Assembly: GCA_050125095.1 (NCBI GenBank)
Contig: JASFEA010000087.1
Span: 1 to 13,355, forward strand
Source: a bacterium
GTDB lineage: Bacteria > Arandabacterota > Arandabacteria > Arandabacterales > JALGWA01
Length of the DNA stretch: 13,355 nt
Direction of reading: 5' to 3'
Below are positions 2,426 to 11,659 of this stretch, piece after piece (within the stretch, counting starts at the first letter, position 1; each line of letters opens with the position of its first letter). The position numbers and the translations under genes were made by a program. The notes beneath the pieces were generated by a model. It saw only the letters and a program-made list of their open reading frames with translations, was not told the DNA's origin and did not search any database.

Positions 2426-3523
2426 ATGGCGGAAGTCGTTCTGGACAAGGTCACCAAGGTATTCGGAAGCAACGTGGTCGCGGTCGACGAGGCCAGCATA
2501 ACCATCGCGGACAAGGAGTTCGTCGTGCTGGTTGGCCCCTCGGGTTGCGGCAAGTCCACCTTCTTGAGGATGATCGCCGGCCTGGAGGAAGCTACCAGCG
2601 GGGAAATCTACATCGACGGCAAGATGGTGAACAACGTCGCTCCCAAGGACAGGGATATCGCGATGGTGTTCCAGAATTACGCCCTCTATCCCCATATGAC
2701 CGCGTTTGACAACATGGCCTTCGGCCTCAAGCTGAGGAAATACCCCAAGGACGAGATAGCCGGGCGCGTGAGGGACGCGGCCCAGATACTGGGGATAGAG
2801 AACCTCCTGGACCGCAAACCCAAGGAGCTTTCGGGCGGCCAGAGACAGCGCGTGGCCGTGGGGCGCGCCATCGTGCGGAAACCCAAGGTGTTTCTGTTCG
2901 ACGAGCCGCTCTCGAACCTGGACGCCAAGCTCCGTGTGCAGATGAGAACGGAGATCGAAAAACTGCACAACCGCCTGCAGACCACCATGATCTACGTTAC
3001 GCATGACCAGATCGAAGCCATGACCATGGGCACCAGGATTGTCGTCCTGAAGGACGGTCTCATACAGCAGGTCGCCGACCCCATGACTCTCTACGACGCC
3101 CCCGTCAACAGGTTCGTGGCCGGGTTCATCGGGAGTCCCGCGATGAACTTCGCTCACGGCAAGATGGCGGGAGACGGCGAGGCCGTCTTCGAAGAGGGCA
3201 CGTTCAATGTCCCGCTGCCGGCGGAAATACGGGGCAAGCTTGCGGATTACAAGGGCAAGGACATCATATTCGGCGTGCGACCCGAGGACCTTCACGCCAG
3301 GCCGCCGGAGGGAGCGGGAGAGCCGGTCTCGTTCAAGGCCACGGTGGAGGTGGTCGAGCCGATGGGAAACGAAATTTTCGTGTACGTGACGACCGGGAAT
3401 ACGCCGGCCGTCGCCAGGCTGACCACGAGGAAAGAGATTACGCCTGGCTCCCAGATCGAGCTTTTCATAGACATGCGCAGGATTCACTTCTTTGACGCCG
3501 GGAGCGAGGCCACTATAGTCTGA
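2426..3523 (+). CDS. ugpC: Carbohydrate (CUT1) ABC transporter ATP-binding protein, MalK/UgpC/MsmX family
   Basis: Walker A GPSGCGKST, MVFQNYALYPHM, signature LSGGQRQR, Walker B FLFDEPLSNLDAKLR, YVTHDQ, FIGSPAMN, C-terminal TOBE region (GVRPE, VVEPMG). The symbol reflects the family; substrate cannot be determined. Confidence 0.92.
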   Translation: MAEVVLDKVTKVFGSNVVAVDEASITIADKEFVVLVGPSGCGKSTFLRMIAGLEEATSGEIYIDGKMVNNVAPKDRDIAMVFQNYALYPHMTAFDNMAFGLKLRKYPKDEIAGRVRDAAQILGIENLLDRKPKELSGGQRQRVAVGRAIVRKPKVFLFDEPLSNLDAKLRVQMRTEIEKLHNRLQTTMIYVTHDQIEAMTMGTRIVVLKDGLIQQVADPMTLYDAPVNRFVAGFIGSPAMNFAHGKMAGDGEAVFEEGTFNVPLPAEIRGKLADYKGKDIIFGVRPEDLHARPPEGAGEPVSFKATVEVVEPMGNEIFVYVTTGNTPAVARLTTRKEITPGSQIELFIDMRRIHFFDAGSEATIV

Positions 3524-3580
3524 TAATACAGGGAAGAGCCTGCATATTTGTCTCGCCAGAGAAAGGTTGTCGGCTTCGCC

Positions 3581-6500
3581 ATGAGGGTCATCTTCCCCTG
3601 CCTGGTTCTGCTCTTTATCTTATCCCCTGTCCGGGCCGCAGAAGAGGCGTTTGACGTTTCCGCCGACAGGCTGTACGGCCGCCGGACAGCGGAAACCGAG
3701 ATCGTCGTCCTCAAGGACAATGTCAGGATAGTCCACGGCTCCACAGTCGCAACCGCCGACAGCGGCTTCTACGACAAGGCCTCCGAGACCCTCAAGCTCA
3801 TGGGCAGAGCGCGCGTCATGGAAGGGCCCGTGGAGGTGCGCGGAGACGAGTGCGTATACTTCAGGCGGGAGAGGAAGGTTATCTTCCCCCGCGGCATGCA
3901 GGCCCTGGACAGCCTCTCGATGGTCCTGGCCGACAGCGGATCGTATGAGCTCGATATGGAAGTGCTCGATGTCCGCGGCAACGTCTACTACGTAGAGGGC
4001 GACCGCACCATCGAGGCCGACCGCGCCGTCTACCACCGCAAGTCCGAGTTCATAGAGGCCGTGGGCTCCGTGGTCGTAGTCGATGCCGGCTATGGGGCCA
4101 CGCTCAGGGCCGAATACGTGACCTATGACCGGCTGGCGGGATACGGCATAGCCGTCGGGAACCCCGTGCTCGAGCTGAATAGCACGAGAACGGCGGCTGA
4201 GCCGGAATCGCAGGGGCCCTCCGGCGAATCCGTGGAGGGCGAGCCGGCCGACAGCGCGTCCGCCGCGGCAACCGGCCCCGTGCCCGGCGCCCCGCCCGGT
4301 GCCGAGCCCGGTGTCGCGCCCGTACCGGGACCCCGGGCGGCCGAGCCCGCTGCTGAAGAGCCCATCACGGTGAGCTCGGATTCCATGGAGGTCTTCGTAG
4401 ACGAGCACAGGGCCGTGGCCGTTGGTAATGTGAAGATAGTCCGCGGGAGCGTCGTGGGGACGGGCGGCACGGCCATTTTCCTCGACGATGAAGACAGGAC
4501 GATACTGACCGGCAGCCCCTTGCTCGTAGACGGCGAGAGCTCTTTAAGCGGCAATACCATAACCATGTTCAGCACGGGCAACGAAATATCCCGCCTCGAG
4601 GCGGCGGGAACCGCCAAGTCGGTATATCTGACCGAGGGCGGGGAGACGAGCGAGCTGACGGGCGAACATATCACCTTCTCGTTCACGCAAGGGGATCTCA
4701 ACCGCATGTTCGTGGACGGCTCGGCGAAGGGCATATTCTACCCGCCCGAGGCGGACTCGGCCGCTTCGGATTACAGTAACGAGGTTGCGGGCGAGACCAT
4801 CACCATCACATTCGCAGGCAGGGAGGCCGAGAGCGCCGTGGTGACGGGGGGAGTCAAGGGCTCTTACAGAATACAGGGCGACGAGTCCGAGGAGCCGGTC
4901 ACATACGAATGCGACAAGCTGATTTATCAGGTCACAAGCGCGGTCATGGTCCTTGACGGCAACGCGAGGGTCAAGTACGGCAATACGCGGCTCAATTCGC
5001 CGCTCATCGAATACGACTCGCGTTCGTATGTGCTCTTCGCGCCATCGGAACCGGAGCTCTGGGAGGGCGAAGACAGGATCACGGGCACCTCGCTTGCATA
5101 CAATCTGAAGACCCGCCGGGGATCCATCTCCGGCGGCGGCACCAATTACGAGAAGGGCTATTACACCGGCGAGCTTGTGAGGAAGGTGGGCGAGCGGGAG
5201 CTCAACGTCTCCAAGGGCACTTACACCACCTGTGAGCATACGGATGACCCCCACTATTCCTTCACTTCAAGCAAGATGAAGGTCTACCTGGACGACAAAG
5301 TCATAGTCAAGCCTGTCGTACTGAGGGTGCGCGGCATGCCGGTCTTCTGGCTCCCGTTCTACATGTTCCCGATAAAGAAGGGGCGCCACTCGGGCATACT
5401 TATGCCCCGGGTCGAATTCGGGTTCGACGAGGGCAAGGGGCGCTTCGTGCGGAACATCGGTTACTACTACGCTCCCAACGACTACTTGGATTTCTCGCTC
5501 TGGGGCGATTACTACGAGGACGACCGCTGGCTCCTGCATCTGGATTCCAGATACAAGCTCAGGTACGTGCTGAGCGGGGGATTCAATGCCTCATTCACCC
5601 AGGAGCTCGACACCGAGAGCCGGAGGTGGGACCTGGAGGGCAGGCACAGCCAGGAGATCGGCGAGGGAGGGAAGCTGGTAGTCCAGGCCGACTTCGTCAG
5701 CGATGAGAAATACCGTACGGAGACCAGCGAGAACCTGGAGAAGTCCCTGAGGCGCATCCTGGAATCGAGCGTTTCCTATACGCAGAGATGGGAGAAGAGC
5801 AGCCTCAGCATAGCCGCGGACAGGAAGGAGAACCTGGACACGGGCGAGATCACGCAGAAGCTCCCTACCTTCAACTACCTTACGAACAGGCGCACCCTCA
5901 TTGAGGCGTCGCCGGGCGAGAACCGGGTGCACCAGGGCACGTATATTTCAGGGAACCTGACTTTCAGCAACACCTCCAGCGACACGGAGCAGGACAGGAC
6001 CGACAGGCAAAGGGCCCAGCTCAACGCCGCCATTTCGTCCAACCTGAGATTCGCCGACGGCAATCACATTCTCAAGAACTCATCCGTGCTCTCAACCGAC
6101 AGAAAGCCCGGCGACGAGTGGTGCGCCGGATGCGACTCCACGATGCGGGCACACAGCGCCTTCAATAACAGGACGGACTTCACCTTCAGGCTGAACCCGT
6201 GGGCGTCGTTGAACGTAAATCCCAACGTGGCGGCTGCGATAACGGTCTACGATGAGGACATCGAGGGCCAGCGCCTCCCGTTGAGGTTAATATACTGGTA
6301 TTCGATAGCCTCCAACATCACCTTCTACAGAACCTTCAACACCAACCTGGGGGGCCTCAAAGCGCTGCGGCACGTGTTCCTGCCCTCGATAAACTACATA
6401 CATCGCCCCGACTTCTCGGAGTATTCGGGCAGGTTCTACAGCCTGCCCGGCGTAGGGGCCAGCGTGAACAAGTCTATGACCATGAGTATCACGCTCGAGA

Positions 6501-7177
6501 ACAGGTTCCAGGCCAAGATCGGCAGCGGAGAGGACGTAAAGAAGCTGAACAACTTCCTGACACTGACAACCTCTACCACGGCCGACTTCCTCTACAAGGA
6601 AAAGGGAGCCGAAACGCCCTTTTCCACTTTGAACTCGTCGCTCAGGTTCTACCCGCCCGGAGGGGTGAGATTCGACATCAACTTCACAAATGACCCCACG
6701 GACCTCTCCTTCGAAACGCTCAATCTCACCACGAGGTTCGCCTATACGGGCAAAGGTGCGCTGCTCCCGGGTTTTGAGGACCCCGATCGCCAGAACTTCG
6801 AGAGCATGAGGGATCTGACGGGCCAGACGCCATCCTACCAGTTCAACGAGCCCACGGCCAATCCCTGGAACGTATCCGTGATATACCGCCTCAACCGGAC
6901 GTTCGAGACGGGGACGCAGGCTCAGTGGCTCGAGATCCAGACGGGCTTCAACCTGTCCCGGAACTGGCGGGTGGACTACAGCAACCGCTATGACATCACG
7001 CAGCGCGAAATGGCCTACCAGGAGTTCTCGATATACCGGGACCTGCACTGCTGGCAGGCCAGATTCGTGCGCCGCTTCCAGAACGGCAACTGGCAGTATT
7101 ACTTCCGCGTCAACCTCAAGGCCCATCCCGACCTCTACGCCGAGCGCGGCCTCCGGTCGCTCGACCGCGCGTATTAA
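3581..7177 (+). CDS. lptD: LPS-assembly outer membrane protein LptD with extended multi-LptA/OstA-like N-terminal region
   Basis: Signal peptide MRVIFPCLVLLFILSPVRA (ATG 3581; in-frame TTG 3548 is the alternative start). Repeated beta-jellyroll signatures (V+ADR+Y, A+G+V+I, G+P+L). LptD hallmarks GTYTTC...PHY...K...VIVKPVVL...PVFWLPF, NIGYY..PNDY.D, and a C-terminal barrel ending FSIYRDLHCWQARF. Confidence 0.8.
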   Translation: MRVIFPCLVLLFILSPVRAAEEAFDVSADRLYGRRTAETEIVVLKDNVRIVHGSTVATADSGFYDKASETLKLMGRARVMEGPVEVRGDECVYFRRERKVIFPRGMQALDSLSMVLADSGSYELDMEVLDVRGNVYYVEGDRTIEADRAVYHRKSEFIEAVGSVVVVDAGYGATLRAEYVTYDRLAGYGIAVGNPVLELNSTRTAAEPESQGPSGESVEGEPADSASAAATGPVPGAPPGAEPGVAPVPGPRAAEPAAEEPITVSSDSMEVFVDEHRAVAVGNVKIVRGSVVGTGGTAIFLDDEDRTILTGSPLLVDGESSLSGNTITMFSTGNEISRLEAAGTAKSVYLTEGGETSELTGEHITFSFTQGDLNRMFVDGSAKGIFYPPEADSAASDYSNEVAGETITITFAGREAESAVVTGGVKGSYRIQGDESEEPVTYECDKLIYQVTSAVMVLDGNARVKYGNTRLNSPLIEYDSRSYVLFAPSEPELWEGEDRITGTSLAYNLKTRRGSISGGGTNYEKGYYTGELVRKVGERELNVSKGTYTTCEHTDDPHYSFTSSKMKVYLDDKVIVKPVVLRVRGMPVFWLPFYMFPIKKGRHSGILMPRVEFGFDEGKGRFVRNIGYYYAPNDYLDFSLWGDYYEDDRWLLHLDSRYKLRYVLSGGFNASFTQELDTESRRWDLEGRHSQEIGEGGKLVVQADFVSDEKYRTETSENLEKSLRRILESSVSYTQRWEKSSLSIAADRKENLDTGEITQKLPTFNYLTNRRTLIEASPGENRVHQGTYISGNLTFSNTSSDTEQDRTDRQRAQLNAAISSNLRFADGNHILKNSSVLSTDRKPGDEWCAGCDSTMRAHSAFNNRTDFTFRLNPWASLNVNPNVAAAITVYDEDIEGQRLPLRLIYWYSIASNITFYRTFNTNLGGLKALRHVFLPSINYIHRPDFSEYSGRFYSLPGVGASVNKSMTMSITLENRFQAKIGSGEDVKKLNNFLTLTTSTTADFLYKEKGAETPFSTLNSSLRFYPPGGVRFDINFTNDPTDLSFETLNLTTRFAYTGKGALLPGFEDPDRQNFESMRDLTGQTPSYQFNEPTANPWNVSVIYRLNRTFETGTQAQWLEIQTGFNLSRNWRVDYSNRYDITQREMAYQEFSIYRDLHCWQARFVRRFQNGNWQYYFRVNLKAHPDLYAERGLRSLDRAY

Positions 7178-7182
7178 CGGGC

Positions 7183-7211
7183 TTGACCCAGTGCCGGCTT
7201 TGCTGTAGGTT
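7183..7211 (+). promoter_or_regulatory. Putative sigma70-type promoter for the DUF1573-rhodanese-MauE unit
   Basis: TTGACC (7183-7188), 17-nt spacer, TAGGTT (7206-7211), in the intergenic gap. Confidence 0.5.
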
Positions 7212-7276
7212 TTGCTGGAACATTGCCCCGCCGGAGGGGTTTCAAGGTCTGTGTGATCGACGAAAAGGTGACTCAC

Positions 7277-8260
7277 TTGGGCAAATCCCTGTGCGTAGGA
7301 CTGGTTTTCTGGGTAGTTTTCTGCGGGGCGGCCTCTGCGGCCGTCAACTGGCATACGACCGATATCGACGTCGGGCGTATTTACAGGGACGAGCCGCAGA
7401 AGATGTCCTTCGGCTTCGTGAACGCGTCGGATGAGACCCTCTATATTTATGATATCGAGCCCTCATGCGACTGCACCAACGCCCAGGCCATACCCGCGGC
7501 GGTGCCTCCCCATAACTCGGGCGAGATAATGGCCTTCTTCGATCCAATGGGTTATGAGGGCAAGGGCAGGATAACCGAGTTCATCCGGCTCGCGACAAGC
7601 GACCCGGAGACCCCGGATGCGGAGCTTTACTTTACGGTTGACGTCGGCGTGGGCCCCGAGCCCGAGCCCCGCGCCCTCAATTTCGGGAGGATATGCAGGG
7701 GCAGTTCCGACACGCTGGCTCTGGTCGTGCGCCCGGGCTCGGACGACGATCTTGAGATACTCGGCTTCGAAAGCGAAACCGAGTGCGTGCATATAACCCG
7801 GGTGGGCCCCCATAAGGGCGGGGGCGAGGAGTTCAGGGCCATCGTCTGCAACCTGGACTGCAGGGGCGCGGTGTCGAGCTACGTCAACATCAAGACGGCG
7901 GACCCGAAGCGGGAAGTCATCAGGGTGGCGGTTAACGCCAACCTCATGGGGACTATAGTGATCGAGCCGGAGGTCATCGCCTTCGGGCCCACGCTGCCCG
8001 GGAAAGAGGTGGCGCAGAAGGTCAGGGTCTATTGCACCGAAAACCAGCGATTCGAGATAGGGAAGGTCACCTGCACGGCGAATTCGATCGATTGCAGCGT
8101 CACGCTTGCCGAAGAATACGTCTACGAGCTCAGAGTGGCCATTAAGGGAGACGCGCCAGCGGGGCGGGTCTCCGGACAGATACTCATAGAGACCGACTGT
8201 GAAAGCCAGCCCCTCCTGACCGCTAAGGTCACGGGCTATGTAAGGAGCGCGGATAAGTGA
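7277..8260 (+). CDS. Exported DUF1573-domain protein with tandem Ig-like domains and a CxC motif
   Basis: TTG 7277 follows AAGGTGA SD (GTG 7268 and TTG 7223 are alternatives); signal peptide MGKSLCVGLVFWVVFCGAASA; DUF1573 pattern ID+G.I...F.F.N....L.I..I.PSCDCT....VPP..SG.I; two further Ig-like repeats (LNFG, IAFG). The stop overlaps the next start (GTGA). Confidence 0.75.
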   Translation: MGKSLCVGLVFWVVFCGAASAAVNWHTTDIDVGRIYRDEPQKMSFGFVNASDETLYIYDIEPSCDCTNAQAIPAAVPPHNSGEIMAFFDPMGYEGKGRITEFIRLATSDPETPDAELYFTVDVGVGPEPEPRALNFGRICRGSSDTLALVVRPGSDDDLEILGFESETECVHITRVGPHKGGGEEFRAIVCNLDCRGAVSSYVNIKTADPKREVIRVAVNANLMGTIVIEPEVIAFGPTLPGKEVAQKVRVYCTENQRFEIGKVTCTANSIDCSVTLAEEYVYELRVAIKGDAPAGRVSGQILIETDCESQPLLTAKVTGYVRSADK

Positions 8261-8730
8261 CGGAAATACTGACGCGGGCGGTGAAAGAGGCCGTCATCAT
8301 CGTGATCATAGTCGTAATAGTCGCCATGGTGGTGAACCGCGCGCGGGATGAGGGAATCCCCCTTATTGCGGACGCGGAGACCTTCCGGGTGCAGACCAAT
8401 GCCGAGTTCCTGGTCGCCGCCGACGCCAGGGCGTATTTCGATGACGGGTCCGGGATCTTCCTTGATGCCCGCGAGGAGCGCCTCTATGCCGCGGAGCACA
8501 TAGAAGGGGCCCTCAACGTCCCTTCCACGGGCGGCGGTGTGGACGAGATGGCCTACATGGTCCCGGCGGACCCCGTGCTCATCTGCTATTCGGCCGAGAG
8601 CACCGAGCGCGAGGCCGGGGTGATAGCGGATAAGCTCCTTGAGCTGGGATTTACCAGAGTCTACGTGCTCCACGGCGGCCTGGAGGCATGGAAAGCCGAG
8701 GGCCTTCCGACTGTGAAGGAGAGCGAGTAA
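8257..8730 (+). CDS. Membrane-anchored rhodanese-like domain protein
   Basis: AAGGAG SD and GTG start; N-terminal hydrophobic helix; FLDAR....Y..EHIEGALNVP and LLELGFTRVYVLHGGLEAWK rhodanese signatures; active-site loop is atypical (ICYSAEST). Confidence 0.85.
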   Translation: MTEILTRAVKEAVIIVIIVVIVAMVVNRARDEGIPLIADAETFRVQTNAEFLVAADARAYFDDGSGIFLDAREERLYAAEHIEGALNVPSTGGGVDEMAYMVPADPVLICYSAESTEREAGVIADKLLELGFTRVYVLHGGLEAWKAEGLPTVKESE

Positions 8731-9201
8731 ATGAGCGATTTCAGATCGGTGGCGGAGAAGGTCTTCTCAAACAAGTATGTCGTGTTCGCCGCAAGGCTGA
8801 TCCTCGGAGTCGTGTTCATTTACGCTTCCCTGGAGAAGATCCAGAATCCGGAGGGATTCGCCCAGGCGATTTACAACTACAGAATGGTGCCCGAATCGCT
8901 GATAAATATAATGGCGATTCTGCTGCCCTGGCTGGAGCTCATTTGCGGCATCCTGGTTATCGTCGGCGTTTTCGTCAGGGGAAGCGCGCTCCTGATAGGA
9001 GCCATGCTGGCGGTCTTCATCGTGGCGCTGTCGAGCGCTCTCCTGCGGGGGCTCGACATCAGCTGCGGCTGTTTCACGCTTGAGGGGGGACGGGGCATTG
9101 CCGGCAAGACGCTTGTGGAGGACATTCTGCTCATGATATGCGTGGCCATAGCACTTCTCCACGGCGGCAAGGTCTTCTCCTTCAAGAAGGGGCTCAATTG
9201 A
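8731..9201 (+). CDS. MauE/DoxX family redox-associated membrane protein
   Basis: TAAATG coupling; RLILGVVFIYASLEKIQNP..FAQAI.NY, LPWLELICG and GLDISCGCF (MauE-type CGC) motifs; about four TM helices. Confidence 0.9.
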   Translation: MSDFRSVAEKVFSNKYVVFAARLILGVVFIYASLEKIQNPEGFAQAIYNYRMVPESLINIMAILLPWLELICGILVIVGVFVRGSALLIGAMLAVFIVALSSALLRGLDISCGCFTLEGGRGIAGKTLVEDILLMICVAIALLHGGKVFSFKKGLN

Positions 9202-9226
9202 CATAAGCCCCGCTCTGTAGTAATAT
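9198..9226 (+). promoter_or_regulatory. sigma70-type promoter for the selenoprotein unit
   Basis: TTGACA (9198-9203, overlapping the MauE TGA stop), 17-nt spacer, TAATAT (9221-9226). Confidence 0.7.
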
Positions 9227-9262
9227 TAGGCGGCAAAAAGCATGAGATCGGGGGGTTTTCTT

Positions 9263-10627
9263 ATGAAATCGAGTTGGCACATATTCCTCACTCTCACGCT
9301 GCTGTGCCTGCTCACGTCGATGCTGGCGGGCGGTGTCTGCAGCGCCGAGGAAAAGCGCATTATGATCGCGGTCACCGGGGACACCCAGGGCGAGATCGCC
9401 CCCTGCGGGTGACACTCGAGCGATAAGGGTGGTCTGGCCCGGCGGGCCGGCTTCGTTGATTCACTTGCTGAGGAGTACTCCAATTTGCTGCTCCTGGACG
9501 CGGGCAACTTCTTCGGCAGAAGGAGTCCGAGCAAGGAGAAGACGTATACCAAGGTGGTAATCGATTATATGAGGAAGACCGGGTATGACGTGGTCGGTAT
9601 CGGCGAGAGGGAAATGAACTACGGGCTCGCCTTCCTAGATGAGCAGATAAAGCAGGGACAGCTCGAGGCGGTATGCGCCAATCTCTATAATGGCAGCGAC
9701 TCGAGCCTCGTGTTCAGGCCGTACACCGTGCGTGAAGTGGGCGGAGTCAGGATAGGCATCATAGGCCTTCTGAACGACGATCCGCGCAGGGTGGGCGTTT
9801 TCGAGCAGCTGGAAGGCGTCTATGTCACCAATTACTATGAGGCCGCCTACGAGTTCCTTCCCGAGATCGAAGACAAGGCCGACATCGTCATAGCGCTCGC
9901 CGCCATCGGGCTGGGCAACGCCAAGCAGATGGTCAAGGACATCCCGGGTTTTGATGTCGTGCTGGTCGCCCACGGGGCCGACAGGACCCCCATGGCCGAG
10001 AAGGTCAACGAATCCATCATAATGAAGCCGGGCACCAAATCGAGTTCGCTGGGGACACTGCTGCTGGTGTTCGACGAGAACAACACTCTGATCGGCTATG
10101 ACGGCTACACGCACATGCTCAAGAAGAAGGGGCGGACCGATCCGCAGGTCGACAAGGTCGTGAAGGCCTGTGAGGAAAGCGAGGAGCAGAGGGCGAAGCT
10201 CCTGGCCAGGCGCAAGTACAAGCTCCCCAACATACCGCAGCGTCCCGAGGTGCTGGCCGCAAGGGGATATCTCGGATGGAACACGTGCCAGAAGTGCCAC
10301 GGGAAGATCCACGAGAGATGGTCGGAGGGCCCCCACGCGCACGCGTTTGAGACTCTGGCGGCCGACGACAGGTGGAACGATCCGGCGTGCCTGCCGTGCC
10401 ACGTGACCGGTTATGAGATCGCGGCCCAGCGGGATTCATCGGATATAAAGCCCGAGATGTGGAACGTGCAGTGCGAGGCCTGCCACGGCCCGGGTACGAT
10501 GCACCGGCGCGACGGCACCATGGCTCCCGTCGGCGAGAGCGTGTGCCTGAAATGCCATACGCCGGAATGGAGCCCCGACTGGAACTACGAGGAGGCGCTC
10601 AAGCGCGTCGACCACGGAAAGGAATAA
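9263..10627 (+). CDS. Predicted selenoprotein: exported UshA/5'-nucleotidase-like (CxU) domain fused to a tetraheme c554-type cytochrome c (454 aa, Sec at codon 50)
   Basis: ATG 9263 is in frame with the 9485 ORF. Translation: MKSSWHIFLTLTLLCLLTSMLAGGVCSA|EEKRIMIAVTGDTQGEIAPCG-(TGA 9410-9412)-HSSDKGGLARRAGFVD...LLLLDAGNFF. The domain continues across the TGA and a SECIS-like hairpin follows. Four CxxCH motifs at 10286, 10388, 10472 and 10544. Confidence 0.85.
9405..9468 (+). promoter_or_regulatory. Bacterial SECIS-like stem-loop for UGA 9410
   Basis: Upper stem CTGGCCC (9434-9440) / GGGCCGG (9444-9450) with G-led loop GGC; AGCGA (9419-9423) / TCGTT (9453-9457); lower stem GCGGGTGA (9405-9412) / TCACTTGC (9461-9468) containing the UGA. 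Folded by eye. Confidence 0.6.
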
Positions 10628-10637
10628 GGACAGAGGA

Positions 10638-10775
10638 TTGAGGTCCAAAGCGCTCACCATATTATTCATCTTCGTCTTCCTTGTTCTGCTCATAGCGGGC
10701 ATGCGCATGGGCGAACTCGGAGAGAATCTCTTCAACGGCAGCGTGCTATGACTGTCCTGCATAGGGATCGGGTGA
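10638..10775 (+). CDS. Predicted small membrane selenoprotein with C-terminal UxxC-IGIG motif (CD1871A-like CxxC family, 45 aa, Sec at codon 38)
   Basis: TTG 10638, 10 nt after the upstream TAA: MRSKALTILFIFVFLVLLIAGMRMGELGENLFNGSVL-(TGA 10749-10751)-LSCIGIG*. Matches small TM peptides ending CxxCIGIG that precede 4Fe-4S membrane proteins, with TGA at the first Cys position. Confidence 0.85.
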
Positions 10776-10787
10776 TCCCTTCGGTCA
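10749..10787 (+). promoter_or_regulatory. Bacterial SECIS-like stem-loop for UGA 10749
   Basis: Perfect 7-bp stem AGGGATC (10763-10769) / GATCCCT (10774-10780) with loop GGGT starting 18 nt after the UGA; lower stem TGACTG (10749-10754) / CGGTCA (10782-10787). Confidence 0.75.
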
Positions 10788-10813
10788 GGCCCGGGTAACT
10801 AGGAGTCGGGGTT

Positions 10814-11659
10814 ATCGTCGCCAGCATCGGTAGTTTCCTCAGGAAGCGCAGAGTCATACAGGCCATCTCCGCCTACGCCCATAACTTCTATATAACCGGA
10901 TTTATCAGCGTCGGGCTCTACCAGGGCGTCATGAAGAGCTTCTGCGCGCCCGGGCTCAACTGCTATGCCTGCCCTGCCGCGACCTTTTCCTGCCCTATCG
11001 GAACGCTTCAGCACTACGGCGTGGTCCGGCAGGTGCCGTACTTTCTGCTGGGATTTCTCGGGCTCGTCGGCCTGGGCGTAGCCAGGTTCACATGCGGCTG
11101 GCTCTGCCCGTTCGGTTTCTTCCAGGACATGATGAAGAAGATATCGAAGCGCGTGGTGCCGCTTCCGCCGCGGCTGACGTATCTCAAGTACGCTTTTCTC
11201 ATCGTGCCGGCGATTCTGCTGCCCATCTATCTGGGCGATTCCTGGTTCTCGAAACTCTGTCCGGCGGGCGGCCTGACTGCGGCGCTTCCCTGGGTGCTCA
11301 TGGACACGTCGCGGTCGGAGTCTCTCATGGGGATGGAAGTGAGACCCCTGGTAGGTACCCTCTTCTATATCAAGATGGTGATACTCGCGGCCTTCCTCGT
11401 GGGCATGGTCTTCATAAAGCGCCCCTTCTGCCGCCTGATGTGCCCCCTGGGAGCCATACTCTCGCTGTTCAACCGGTTCAGCATATTGCGGCTCAGGGTC
11501 GAAAAAGCCGCGTGCACCGGTTGCGGCCAATGCCACGCCAACTGCCCGGTGGACATATACCCCTACACCGAGGTCGACTCGCCCAACTGCATCAAGTGCC
11601 TCGAATGCACCAGGTGCCCCGAGGGCGCCATCAGGATTCAAGCGGTGCTGGGCAGGTAG
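10814..11659 (+). CDS. Membrane 4Fe-4S binding protein (NapH/MauN/RdxA-like polyferredoxin)
   Basis: CAPGLNCYACP..SCPIG, RFTCGWLCPFG, FSKLCPAG, RPFCRLMCPLG, CTGCGQCHANCP, CIKCLECTRCP; several TM helices. The frame is open back to TAA 10796-10798 and contains the family-typical RRVIQ N-terminus. The start is placed at ATC 10814 behind AGGAG and is uncertain; the first ATG is 10931. Confidence 0.8.
   Translation: MVASIGSFLRKRRVIQAISAYAHNFYITGFISVGLYQGVMKSFCAPGLNCYACPAATFSCPIGTLQHYGVVRQVPYFLLGFLGLVGLGVARFTCGWLCPFGFFQDMMKKISKRVVPLPPRLTYLKYAFLIVPAILLPIYLGDSWFSKLCPAGGLTAALPWVLMDTSRSESLMGMEVRPLVGTLFYIKMVILAAFLVGMVFIKRPFCRLMCPLGAILSLFNRFSILRLRVEKAACTGCGQCHANCPVDIYPYTEVDSPNCIKCLECTRCPEGAIRIQAVLGR

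Follow-up and report, generated by a model that had tools for sequence, protein, structure and literature searches.

Proteins of the CD1871A type are small, have one membrane helix and end in the motif CxxC-I-G-(I/L)-G, features that recur in the alignments reported here. NapH-like proteins with a PF12801 domain are presumed to move electrons through the membrane and on to small mediators on its extracytosolic side; in the systems covered by the accessible part of PMC8238504, a multi-helix membrane Fe-S protein is combined with a mediator that is an ApbE-flavinylated FMN domain. The bacterial SECIS consensus, as given in the accessible part of PMC13188914, places a G in the first two loop positions, 16–37 nt from the UGA, and has a small apical loop that opens with G and has G or U next. 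In UXX-star, SaoC and HgcB (GVGU), selenocysteine (Sec) sits even closer to the C-terminus than in the protein described here (PMC13188914 Table 1).

Analyzing a 13,355-nt stretch of bacterial DNA (hereafter, the window), we describe a sequence at 10638–10775 that, with a probability of roughly 0.8, is an unannotated gene for a single-pass membrane micro-protein whose UGA at 10749 is read as Sec via a hairpin at 10763–10780. Like CD1871A proteins, the predicted product is ~45 aa long, with an N-terminal membrane helix and the CxxC-I-G-(I/L)-G type of C-terminus, and is encoded directly upstream of a Fer4_5 gene. It differs in belonging to a divergent ‘(N)G..L-[CU]-LSC’ branch with a TGA replacing the first Cys; moreover, the CD1871A family name carries no ‘(seleno)’ tag, whereas the families of the neighboring genes in the window have one. 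Compared with the flavinylated systems described in the accessible text of PMC8238504, the mediator proposed here is a CxxC/UxxC micro-protein, often together with a ResA/TlpA-like thioredoxin.

A small gene with two in-frame TGA codons

The features of the locus, all on the forward strand, are the following; L001 denotes the related locus whose downstream partner protein is 58% identical to that of the window.

7223–8260, +: DUF1573/OS_HP2-like gene, same order in L001
8257–8730, +: membrane-anchored rhodanese gene, same order in L001
8731–9201, +: MauE/DoxX gene, same order in L001
9242–10627, +: UshA-like/cytochrome c554 selenoprotein gene, in-frame TGA at 9410–9412, motif APCGU
10626–10630, +: Shine-Dalgarno-like AAGGA, 7 nt 5′ of the TTG at 10638, overlapping the stop of the upstream gene
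10638–10775, +: small gene of 45 codons, TTG start, TGA stop; a transmembrane helix, then (on the proposed reading) U-L-S-C-I-G-I-G
10749–10751, +: in-frame TGA at codon 38, proposed Sec codon, aligned with the first Cys of the CxxC in relatives
10763–10780, +: SECIS-like hairpin, 7-bp stem AGGGAUC/GAUCCCU, loop GGGU starting 18 nt after the TGA
10773–10775, +: TGA stop of the small gene, straddling the hairpin loop and 3′ arm
10814–11659, +: NapH-like membrane 4Fe-4S protein (Fer4_5) from its possible start, conserved downstream partner

The upstream gene stops with the TAA at 10625–10627, and the small-gene frame that follows reads M-RSKALTILFIFVFLVLLIAGMRMGELGENLFNGSVL-TGA(10749–10751)-LSCIGIG-TGA(10773–10775). 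Translated from the TTG at 10638 onward, the same frame gives MRSKALTILFIFVFLVLLIAGMRMGELGENLFNGSVL, then the TGA at 10749–10751, LSCIGIG and the TGA at 10773–10775. The two in-frame TGAs are 24 nt apart. Hydropathy (15-residue mean) peaks at 3.08 over residues 7–21, indicating a peptide that consists of a single membrane helix and ~24 residues after it. All coordinates that the first-pass annotation had given proved correct on direct reading; the membrane helix, the U-L-S-C-I-G-I-G ending and the 24-nt spacing that it described are likewise seen in the sequence, and the hydropathy profile agrees. Its ‘300-nt gap’ after the upstream gene exists for canonical starts only: with ATG, GTG or TTG as start, the ORF of the downstream gene does not begin until 10931.

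Some minor observations attach to the same region. In P0003, a relative that is 84% identical, the ATG start lies two codons earlier, at a place where the window has AGA (region 10632–10640). A sigma-70-like match inside the small ORF (10638–10665: TTGAGG, 16 nt, TATTAT; 9/12) is probably due to chance. An ORF on the minus strand (10436–10762) was rejected, as it overlaps the conserved UshA-like gene by 190 nt and has no homologue from any search.

Relatives carry Cys or TGA in the same column

To place the peptide, we gathered 80 related loci via the downstream 4Fe-4S protein (best partner identity 58%), which together with the window make up 81 sources. Relatives ending in CxxCIG(I/L)G, on which the first-pass interpretation hinged, do exist: a regular expression ([CU]xx[CU]-h-G-h-G, applied to the 600 nt that precede the 4Fe-4S gene) identified a small ORF with the ending CxxC[IV]G[IL]G directly upstream of that gene in 64 of the 80 loci. 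A profile of 63 peptides (alignment A2) raised this to 79 of 81 sources, missing only L002 and L048; the 14 peptides recovered in addition have other last residues (CIGIE, CIGLF and similar), and two of them are TGA forms. The small gene stands directly before the Fer4_5 gene in 79/81 sources. Five columns are invariant in the 63-sequence alignment, namely G21, C38 (the TGA in the window), C41, G43 and G45. When the micro-protein profile was run against 1.84 billion representative proteins, it matched 3720 with a threshold of E ≤ 1e-3, and 928 when this was tightened to E ≤ 1e-10.

The sole NCBIfam match of the window peptide was CD1871A_fam (NF040920), with 8.8 bits (E = 1.5) against a cut-off of 32. 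Despite this low score the alignment runs end to end, over profile positions 2–38 of 38; given the sub-threshold score, we class the peptide as a divergent CD1871A relative rather than a scored member. A Pfam search with the peptide returned no match, and none of the NCBIfam selenoprotein models was matched at E ≤ 10. All 63 aligned peptides match NF040920 at E ≤ 10, the best at 8.8e-20. A profile built from Cys forms only (46 forms, alignment A5) matched the read-through frame of the window at E = 1.4e-10 (34.7 bits), the runner-up among the 179 six-frame pieces of the window reaching E = 1, and it matched all nine TGA forms at E ≤ 1.8e-4 (20,059 pieces searched). The label ‘CD1871A-like’ given at first pass therefore stands on homology (the Cys-only profile), C-terminal motif and gene position, and fails on the curated cut-off (8.8 vs. 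32 bits).

In the column of the first Cys, nine sources have TGA (the window, L001, L003, L004, L005, L006, L008, L015 and L032) and 70 have Cys, which bears out the Cys/Sec alternation that had been anticipated at codon 38. The second Cys column has TGA in no source. Sec at the first Cys would mark that residue as the likely catalytic nucleophile, an experimental handle for the whole micro-protein family.

Two groups of loci depart from the simple layout. In nine Oscillospiraceae and Eubacteriales loci (L036, L042, L047, L066, L070, L073, L074, L079 and L080), the frame ending in …ICTEC(I/V)GLG is open for ~150–210 codons upstream, and may encode a long protein form with extra membrane segments. 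In L069, the C-terminal motif is matched three times at 7876–7975 (CMECIGIG, CMECVGIG and CMECAGIG), by stretches that overlap or adjoin one another, which suggests small-gene fragments duplicated in tandem.

The downstream partner and a candidate redox role

The frame of the 4Fe-4S gene is open from 10799, and the stop of the small gene ends at 10775. Within this frame there is no ATG, GTG or TTG before 10931, and conserved N-terminal residues lie upstream of 10931 (Q21 and N29 in A1, an alignment of 29 NapH-like relatives drawn from thousands). Relatives begin with MKRR where the window has AGG-AAG (10841). An ATC at 10814, 8 nt behind AGGAG (10801–10805), could serve as the start. The nearest relatives in the database, P0006 (251 aa) and P0010 (242 aa), are shorter than the next relatives (268–272 aa); judged from lengths alone, this fits their having been called from an internal start. 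In L010, a Cys form, the small gene stops and the 4Fe-4S gene starts within one shared ATGA (7984–7989), which suggests translational coupling in Cys forms.

The window and L001 (4506–9610) share the order DUF1573, rhodanese, MauE/DoxX, UshA-like PCGU cytochrome, TGA-form peptide, Fer4_5 and SIR2. As this order is kept at 58% partner identity, the set can be regarded as a conserved unit. A ResA/TlpA-like redoxin gene lies beside the pair, on the same strand, in 43 of the 65 sources with a regular-expression peptide and in 47 of all 81; there is none within about 3 kb of the pair in the window. Two neighbors in the window match families named ‘(seleno)protein’ below cut-offs, the rhodanese (8257–8730) matching rhodanese_LYCAU and the DUF1573 protein (7223–8260) matching OS_HP2. 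Neither gene contains an internal in-frame TGA. The ‘cytochrome’ of the first-pass annotation is a fusion protein in which an UshA-like metallophosphoesterase is joined with a cytochrome c554 domain.

Conserved gene order suggests that the peptide may be a redox partner of the downstream polyferredoxin. It would work with the NapH-like 4Fe-4S membrane protein, its C-terminal selenol/thiol pair serving as a redox relay that accepts electrons from this Fe-S protein and hands them to proteins outside the cytoplasm. The acceptor would be a ResA/TlpA-like thioredoxin in most genomes and, in the window, the neighboring set of rhodanese, MauE and UshA-like cytochrome. More tentatively, and on balance doubtfully, the Sec micro-protein and its NapH-like conduit may form a trans-membrane reductant route distinct from DsbD/CcdA, one that would feed ResA/TlpA-like thioredoxins in most lineages and would here be re-wired, with a faster selenol, to a sulfur/selenium set (rhodanese, MauE and the UshA-like PCGU cytochrome). 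The DsbD/CcdA→ResA/TlpA pathways serve as a working analogy only: in both cases a membrane component adjoins the gene of an extracytoplasmic ResA/TlpA-like thioredoxin, but there is no homology, and electrons are proposed to pass via Fe-S clusters and not via membrane-embedded Cys pairs. Complex prediction for the L010 Cys-form protein with its 4Fe-4S partner only (alignments A5 and A4) scored 0.20 and 0.18, below the mark of 0.32, values that weigh neither for nor against a complex.

The Sec/Cys pair might instead be a ligand that, together with the N-terminal Cys cluster of the partner, binds an Fe-S cluster or some other metal where the subunits meet. The invariant Cys-rich N-terminal motif of the partner (C49, C55, C58 and C65) would suit such a role, and UxxC occurs in metal-ligating selenoproteins (PMC13188914 Table 1); the frequent ResA/TlpA-like neighbor (43/65), by contrast, fits thiol-disulfide exchange better. 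We consider metal ligation unlikely, though with enough in its favor to be kept in view beside the redox relay.

In L003, the pair has a setting of its own (3409–10796), in the order selA, an HGD-D/BcrAD pair, a ResA-like redoxin, the TGA-form peptide, Fer4_5 and two selD. The position of this module between selA and the two selD makes it conceivable that it has a direct part in supplying selenium.

A SECIS-like hairpin accompanies the TGA forms

In the window, positions 10763–10769 (AGGGATC) pair with 10774–10780 (GATCCCT) around the loop GGGT (10770–10773). The stop TGA is formed by the last loop base and the two bases that open the 3′ arm, which ends in intergenic DNA. The first-pass annotation had described just this, a hairpin with a GGGU loop that holds the second TGA and has a non-coding 3′ arm, and it can be read directly in the sequence. 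RNAfold recovers the 7-bp stem together with a weaker lower helix starting right after the first TGA. The SECIS of E. coli fdhF contains a bulged U; the hairpin of the window resembles this element and the bacterial consensus in being a stem-loop 3′ of the UGA with a small, G-led apical loop, and differs from the fdhF element in that no bulged U is evident in its 7-bp stem. Its geometry (GGGU, 18 nt) fits the bacterial consensus in the accessible part of PMC13188914.

Fold energy is uninformative here. The hairpin of the window has z = −0.51 relative to shuffles, and 58 of 200 shuffles fold as well. Shuffling only the 28 nt 3′ of the last Gly codon gave p < 0.05 in none of seven TGA forms, with a mean z of −0.72 for these, as compared to −0.24 across 58 Cys forms (Mann-Whitney p = 0.02). 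At 9410, the known Sec site of the UshA-like gene, fold energy is likewise unremarkable (z = −0.13), indicating that in DNA as GC-rich as this the test discriminates poorly. More-than-chance support for the hairpin comes from comparative data and not from fold energy.

For the comparison, we scored a stem of at least 6 contiguous bp (G-U allowed) with a loop of 3–6 nt that has a G in its first two bases, the 5′ arm ending 16–35 nt after the first base of the codon; Cys forms served as the control. An earlier run covered 7 TGA and 58 Cys sequences. In the full set, such a stem is present in 8 of 9 TGA forms vs. 8 of 70 Cys forms (Fisher p = 4e-6). Shuffled sequences are expected to contain it at rates of 0.118 (TGA) and 0.089 (Cys), so that the Cys forms (8/70) are at chance level; the probability of at least 8 of 9 is 1.2e-7. 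The remaining TGA form, L032, has a stem of only 5 bp at the expected place. The arms of the others are:

Window: 5′ AGGGATC, 3′ GATCCCT
L001: 5′ AGGAATC, 3′ GATTCCT
L004: 5′ GGGGTC, 3′ GACTCC
L005 and L006: 5′ GGGTTA, 3′ TAACCC
L008 (shifted): 5′ AGGGTA, 3′ TACCCT
L003 (shifted): 5′ TTGGAGT, 3′ ACTCCAA
L015 (shifted): 5′ TCTTCC, 3′ GGAAGA

Arm changes in L001, L004, L005 and L006 are compensatory and pairing is kept. The 5′ arm is constrained by the Gly-Ile/Val/Leu codons, and the 3′ arm, which is free, tracks it. In L003 and L015, extra C-terminal residues of the protein house the shifted stem. The covariation proposed at first pass, with UGA and Cys orthologs set against each other, is thus found, both in the counts (8/9 vs. 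8/70) and in the compensatory arms. The TGA forms are not independent, and about six distinct hairpin sequences remain.

These data also bear on the idea that the hairpin is no SECIS and arises as a by-product of the Gly-Ile-Gly codons, or tunes translation of the 4Fe-4S gene. The codons GGN-AUH-GGN do fix the 5′ arm and the greater part of the loop, the minimal-free-energy statistics are weak, and with a downstream gene that has no canonical start, unusual control of initiation is conceivable. But Cys forms with the same codons reach the stem only at the shuffle rate (8/70), the non-coding 3′ arm co-varies with synonymous or conservative changes in the 5′ arm, and the C-terminal extension in L003 and L015 houses a shifted hairpin; a search for a terminator-like site found none. 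This makes a non-SECIS hairpin very improbable. An Rfam search of 9300–10900 returned no SECIS family, the only matches at E ≤ 10 being two unrelated ones at chance level.

Translation probably continues past the first TGA

If the first TGA were a true stop, the gene would encode a 37-residue peptide or be a decaying pseudogene of a Cys form, with LSCIGIG as an untranslated remnant. Gene callers do end the gene there: a word-based homologue search with the peptide retrieved only the window's own 37-aa form and one 39-aa relative, lengths that show both entries to be cut at the TGA. The unremarkable fold energy of the hairpin would also be in keeping with a stop. Against this, nine sources, which span several phyla, have TGA at precisely this codon. 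All nine retain the motif [LM]-x-C-I-G-x-[GF] after the TGA, and the seven post-TGA codons of the window and L001 keep the family motif with three base differences (CTG/CTA, TCC/TCT and GGG/GGA), all synonymous, the GGG→GGA change being paired with a C→T in the 3′ arm of the hairpin. The hairpin goes with TGA forms and not with Cys forms, and a truncated peptide would drop both invariant Cys positions. We therefore judge a true stop to have only a slim chance of being correct.

To ask how often the trait arose, we placed it on a tree of the partner protein covering 78 of the 81 sources (fewer than 180 residues were readable from the match start in L011, L014 and L032). Eight TGA rows fall inside one well-supported (starred) set of 20 rows; the trait requires 3–4 changes, of which the starred branches force at least two.

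That Sec can be decoded in the genome of the window follows from the UshA-like PCGU gene, 1.3 kb upstream. With its in-frame TGA read as C, this gene reaches 282.2 bits against NF041198 (UshA-like (seleno)protein, PCGU type), above the cut-off of 275, as compared to 231.7 bits for the truncated ORF. Ordinary ORF calling starts this gene at 9485, with loss of the signal peptide and the Sec site. TGA is the ordinary stop of at least three other genes in the window (ends 3523, 8260 and 9201) and is therefore not generally reassigned. In L003, the module lies between selA (Pfam E = 1e-143) and two selD (TIGR00476, 309.5 and 179.4 bits; cut-off 125).

The comparative data show translation past the TGA and not the inserted residue, so that a near-cognate tRNA (Trp or Cys) or local recoding without Sec might be imagined; Cys in 70 relatives as in a classic Sec/Cys pair, the SECIS-like geometry of the hairpin, the presence of a known selenoprotein gene in this run of genes, selA and selD flanking the L003 module and the use of TGA as a normal stop in neighboring genes leave this the faintest of prospects. 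Judging by sequence comparison, the UGA at 10749 most likely encodes Sec. The first-pass proposal that the first UGA is read as Sec and the second as stop accordingly gains support from the alternation, the post-TGA conservation, the link to the hairpin and the upstream selenoprotein gene.

A probable selenium form of a widespread micro-protein family

In type, this would be a bacterial selenoprotein with Cys homologues and a standard SECIS. The 2026 table of 119 prokaryotic selenoprotein families (PMC13188914 Table 1) contains neither CD1871A/NF040920 nor a micro-protein beside a NapH-like protein. None of the nine new families named in the accessible part of the deep-Sep paper (PMC12013277) is described as a CD1871A-like micro-protein; deep-Sep, BSepDB (PMC13326102) or the 2026 review may yet carry the family under a different name. 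Within the searched library, no paper names the CD1871A family, and the motif led to one microproteome preprint and otherwise to papers that are unrelated by title; by title and abstract, the literature on selenoproteins and polyferredoxins held nothing bearing on a CD1871A-like family, nor did the accessible part of the Haft preprint (10.1101/2022.07.06.499078). Papers on C. difficile that mention CD1871 or CD18710 were set aside, as they concern other genes.

If the proposed reading is right, the gene would represent a very small prokaryotic selenoprotein family that is absent from the table of 119 (PMC13188914), and would add a selenium form to a widespread micro-protein family beside iron-sulfur membrane proteins. 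With a truncated ORF of only 37 codons, the gene is invisible to standard annotation. The pair of a CxxC micro-protein and a NapH-like Fe-S membrane protein, often with a ResA/TlpA-like thioredoxin, is common and unstudied.

Proposed termination inside the hairpin

In most TGA forms, the stop lies inside or adjoins the stem-loop. It is TGA in the window, L001 and L004, and TAA within the 3′ arm in L005 and L006; in L008, a TAG spans the 5′ arm and loop, and in L003 the stop comes directly after the stem. This location results from the Sec being only seven codons from the C-terminal end. Any bacterial selenoprotein whose Sec lies close to the C-terminus is expected to have its stop in or ahead of the SECIS, and no new mechanism is involved. 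In the proposed course of events, the ribosome would read the UGA at 10749 as Sec, helped by the SECIS-type hairpin at 10763–10780. When it reaches the second UGA (10773), the hairpin would be in the course of melting with no further hairpin 3′ of it, and translation would for this reason terminate.

UXX-star, SaoC and HgcB offer the nearest parallel, with Sec a few residues from the end and genes truncated in databases. In such proteins, as in the small peptide, the SECIS must reach past the stop; the motifs of the three families suggest that their SECIS lies beyond the stop codon. They differ from the protein of the window in belonging to other protein families, the latter being membrane-anchored and having a stop that is itself a UGA inside the stem-loop. 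In L003, the terminal TGA of the peptide is in frame with the Fer4_5 ORF.
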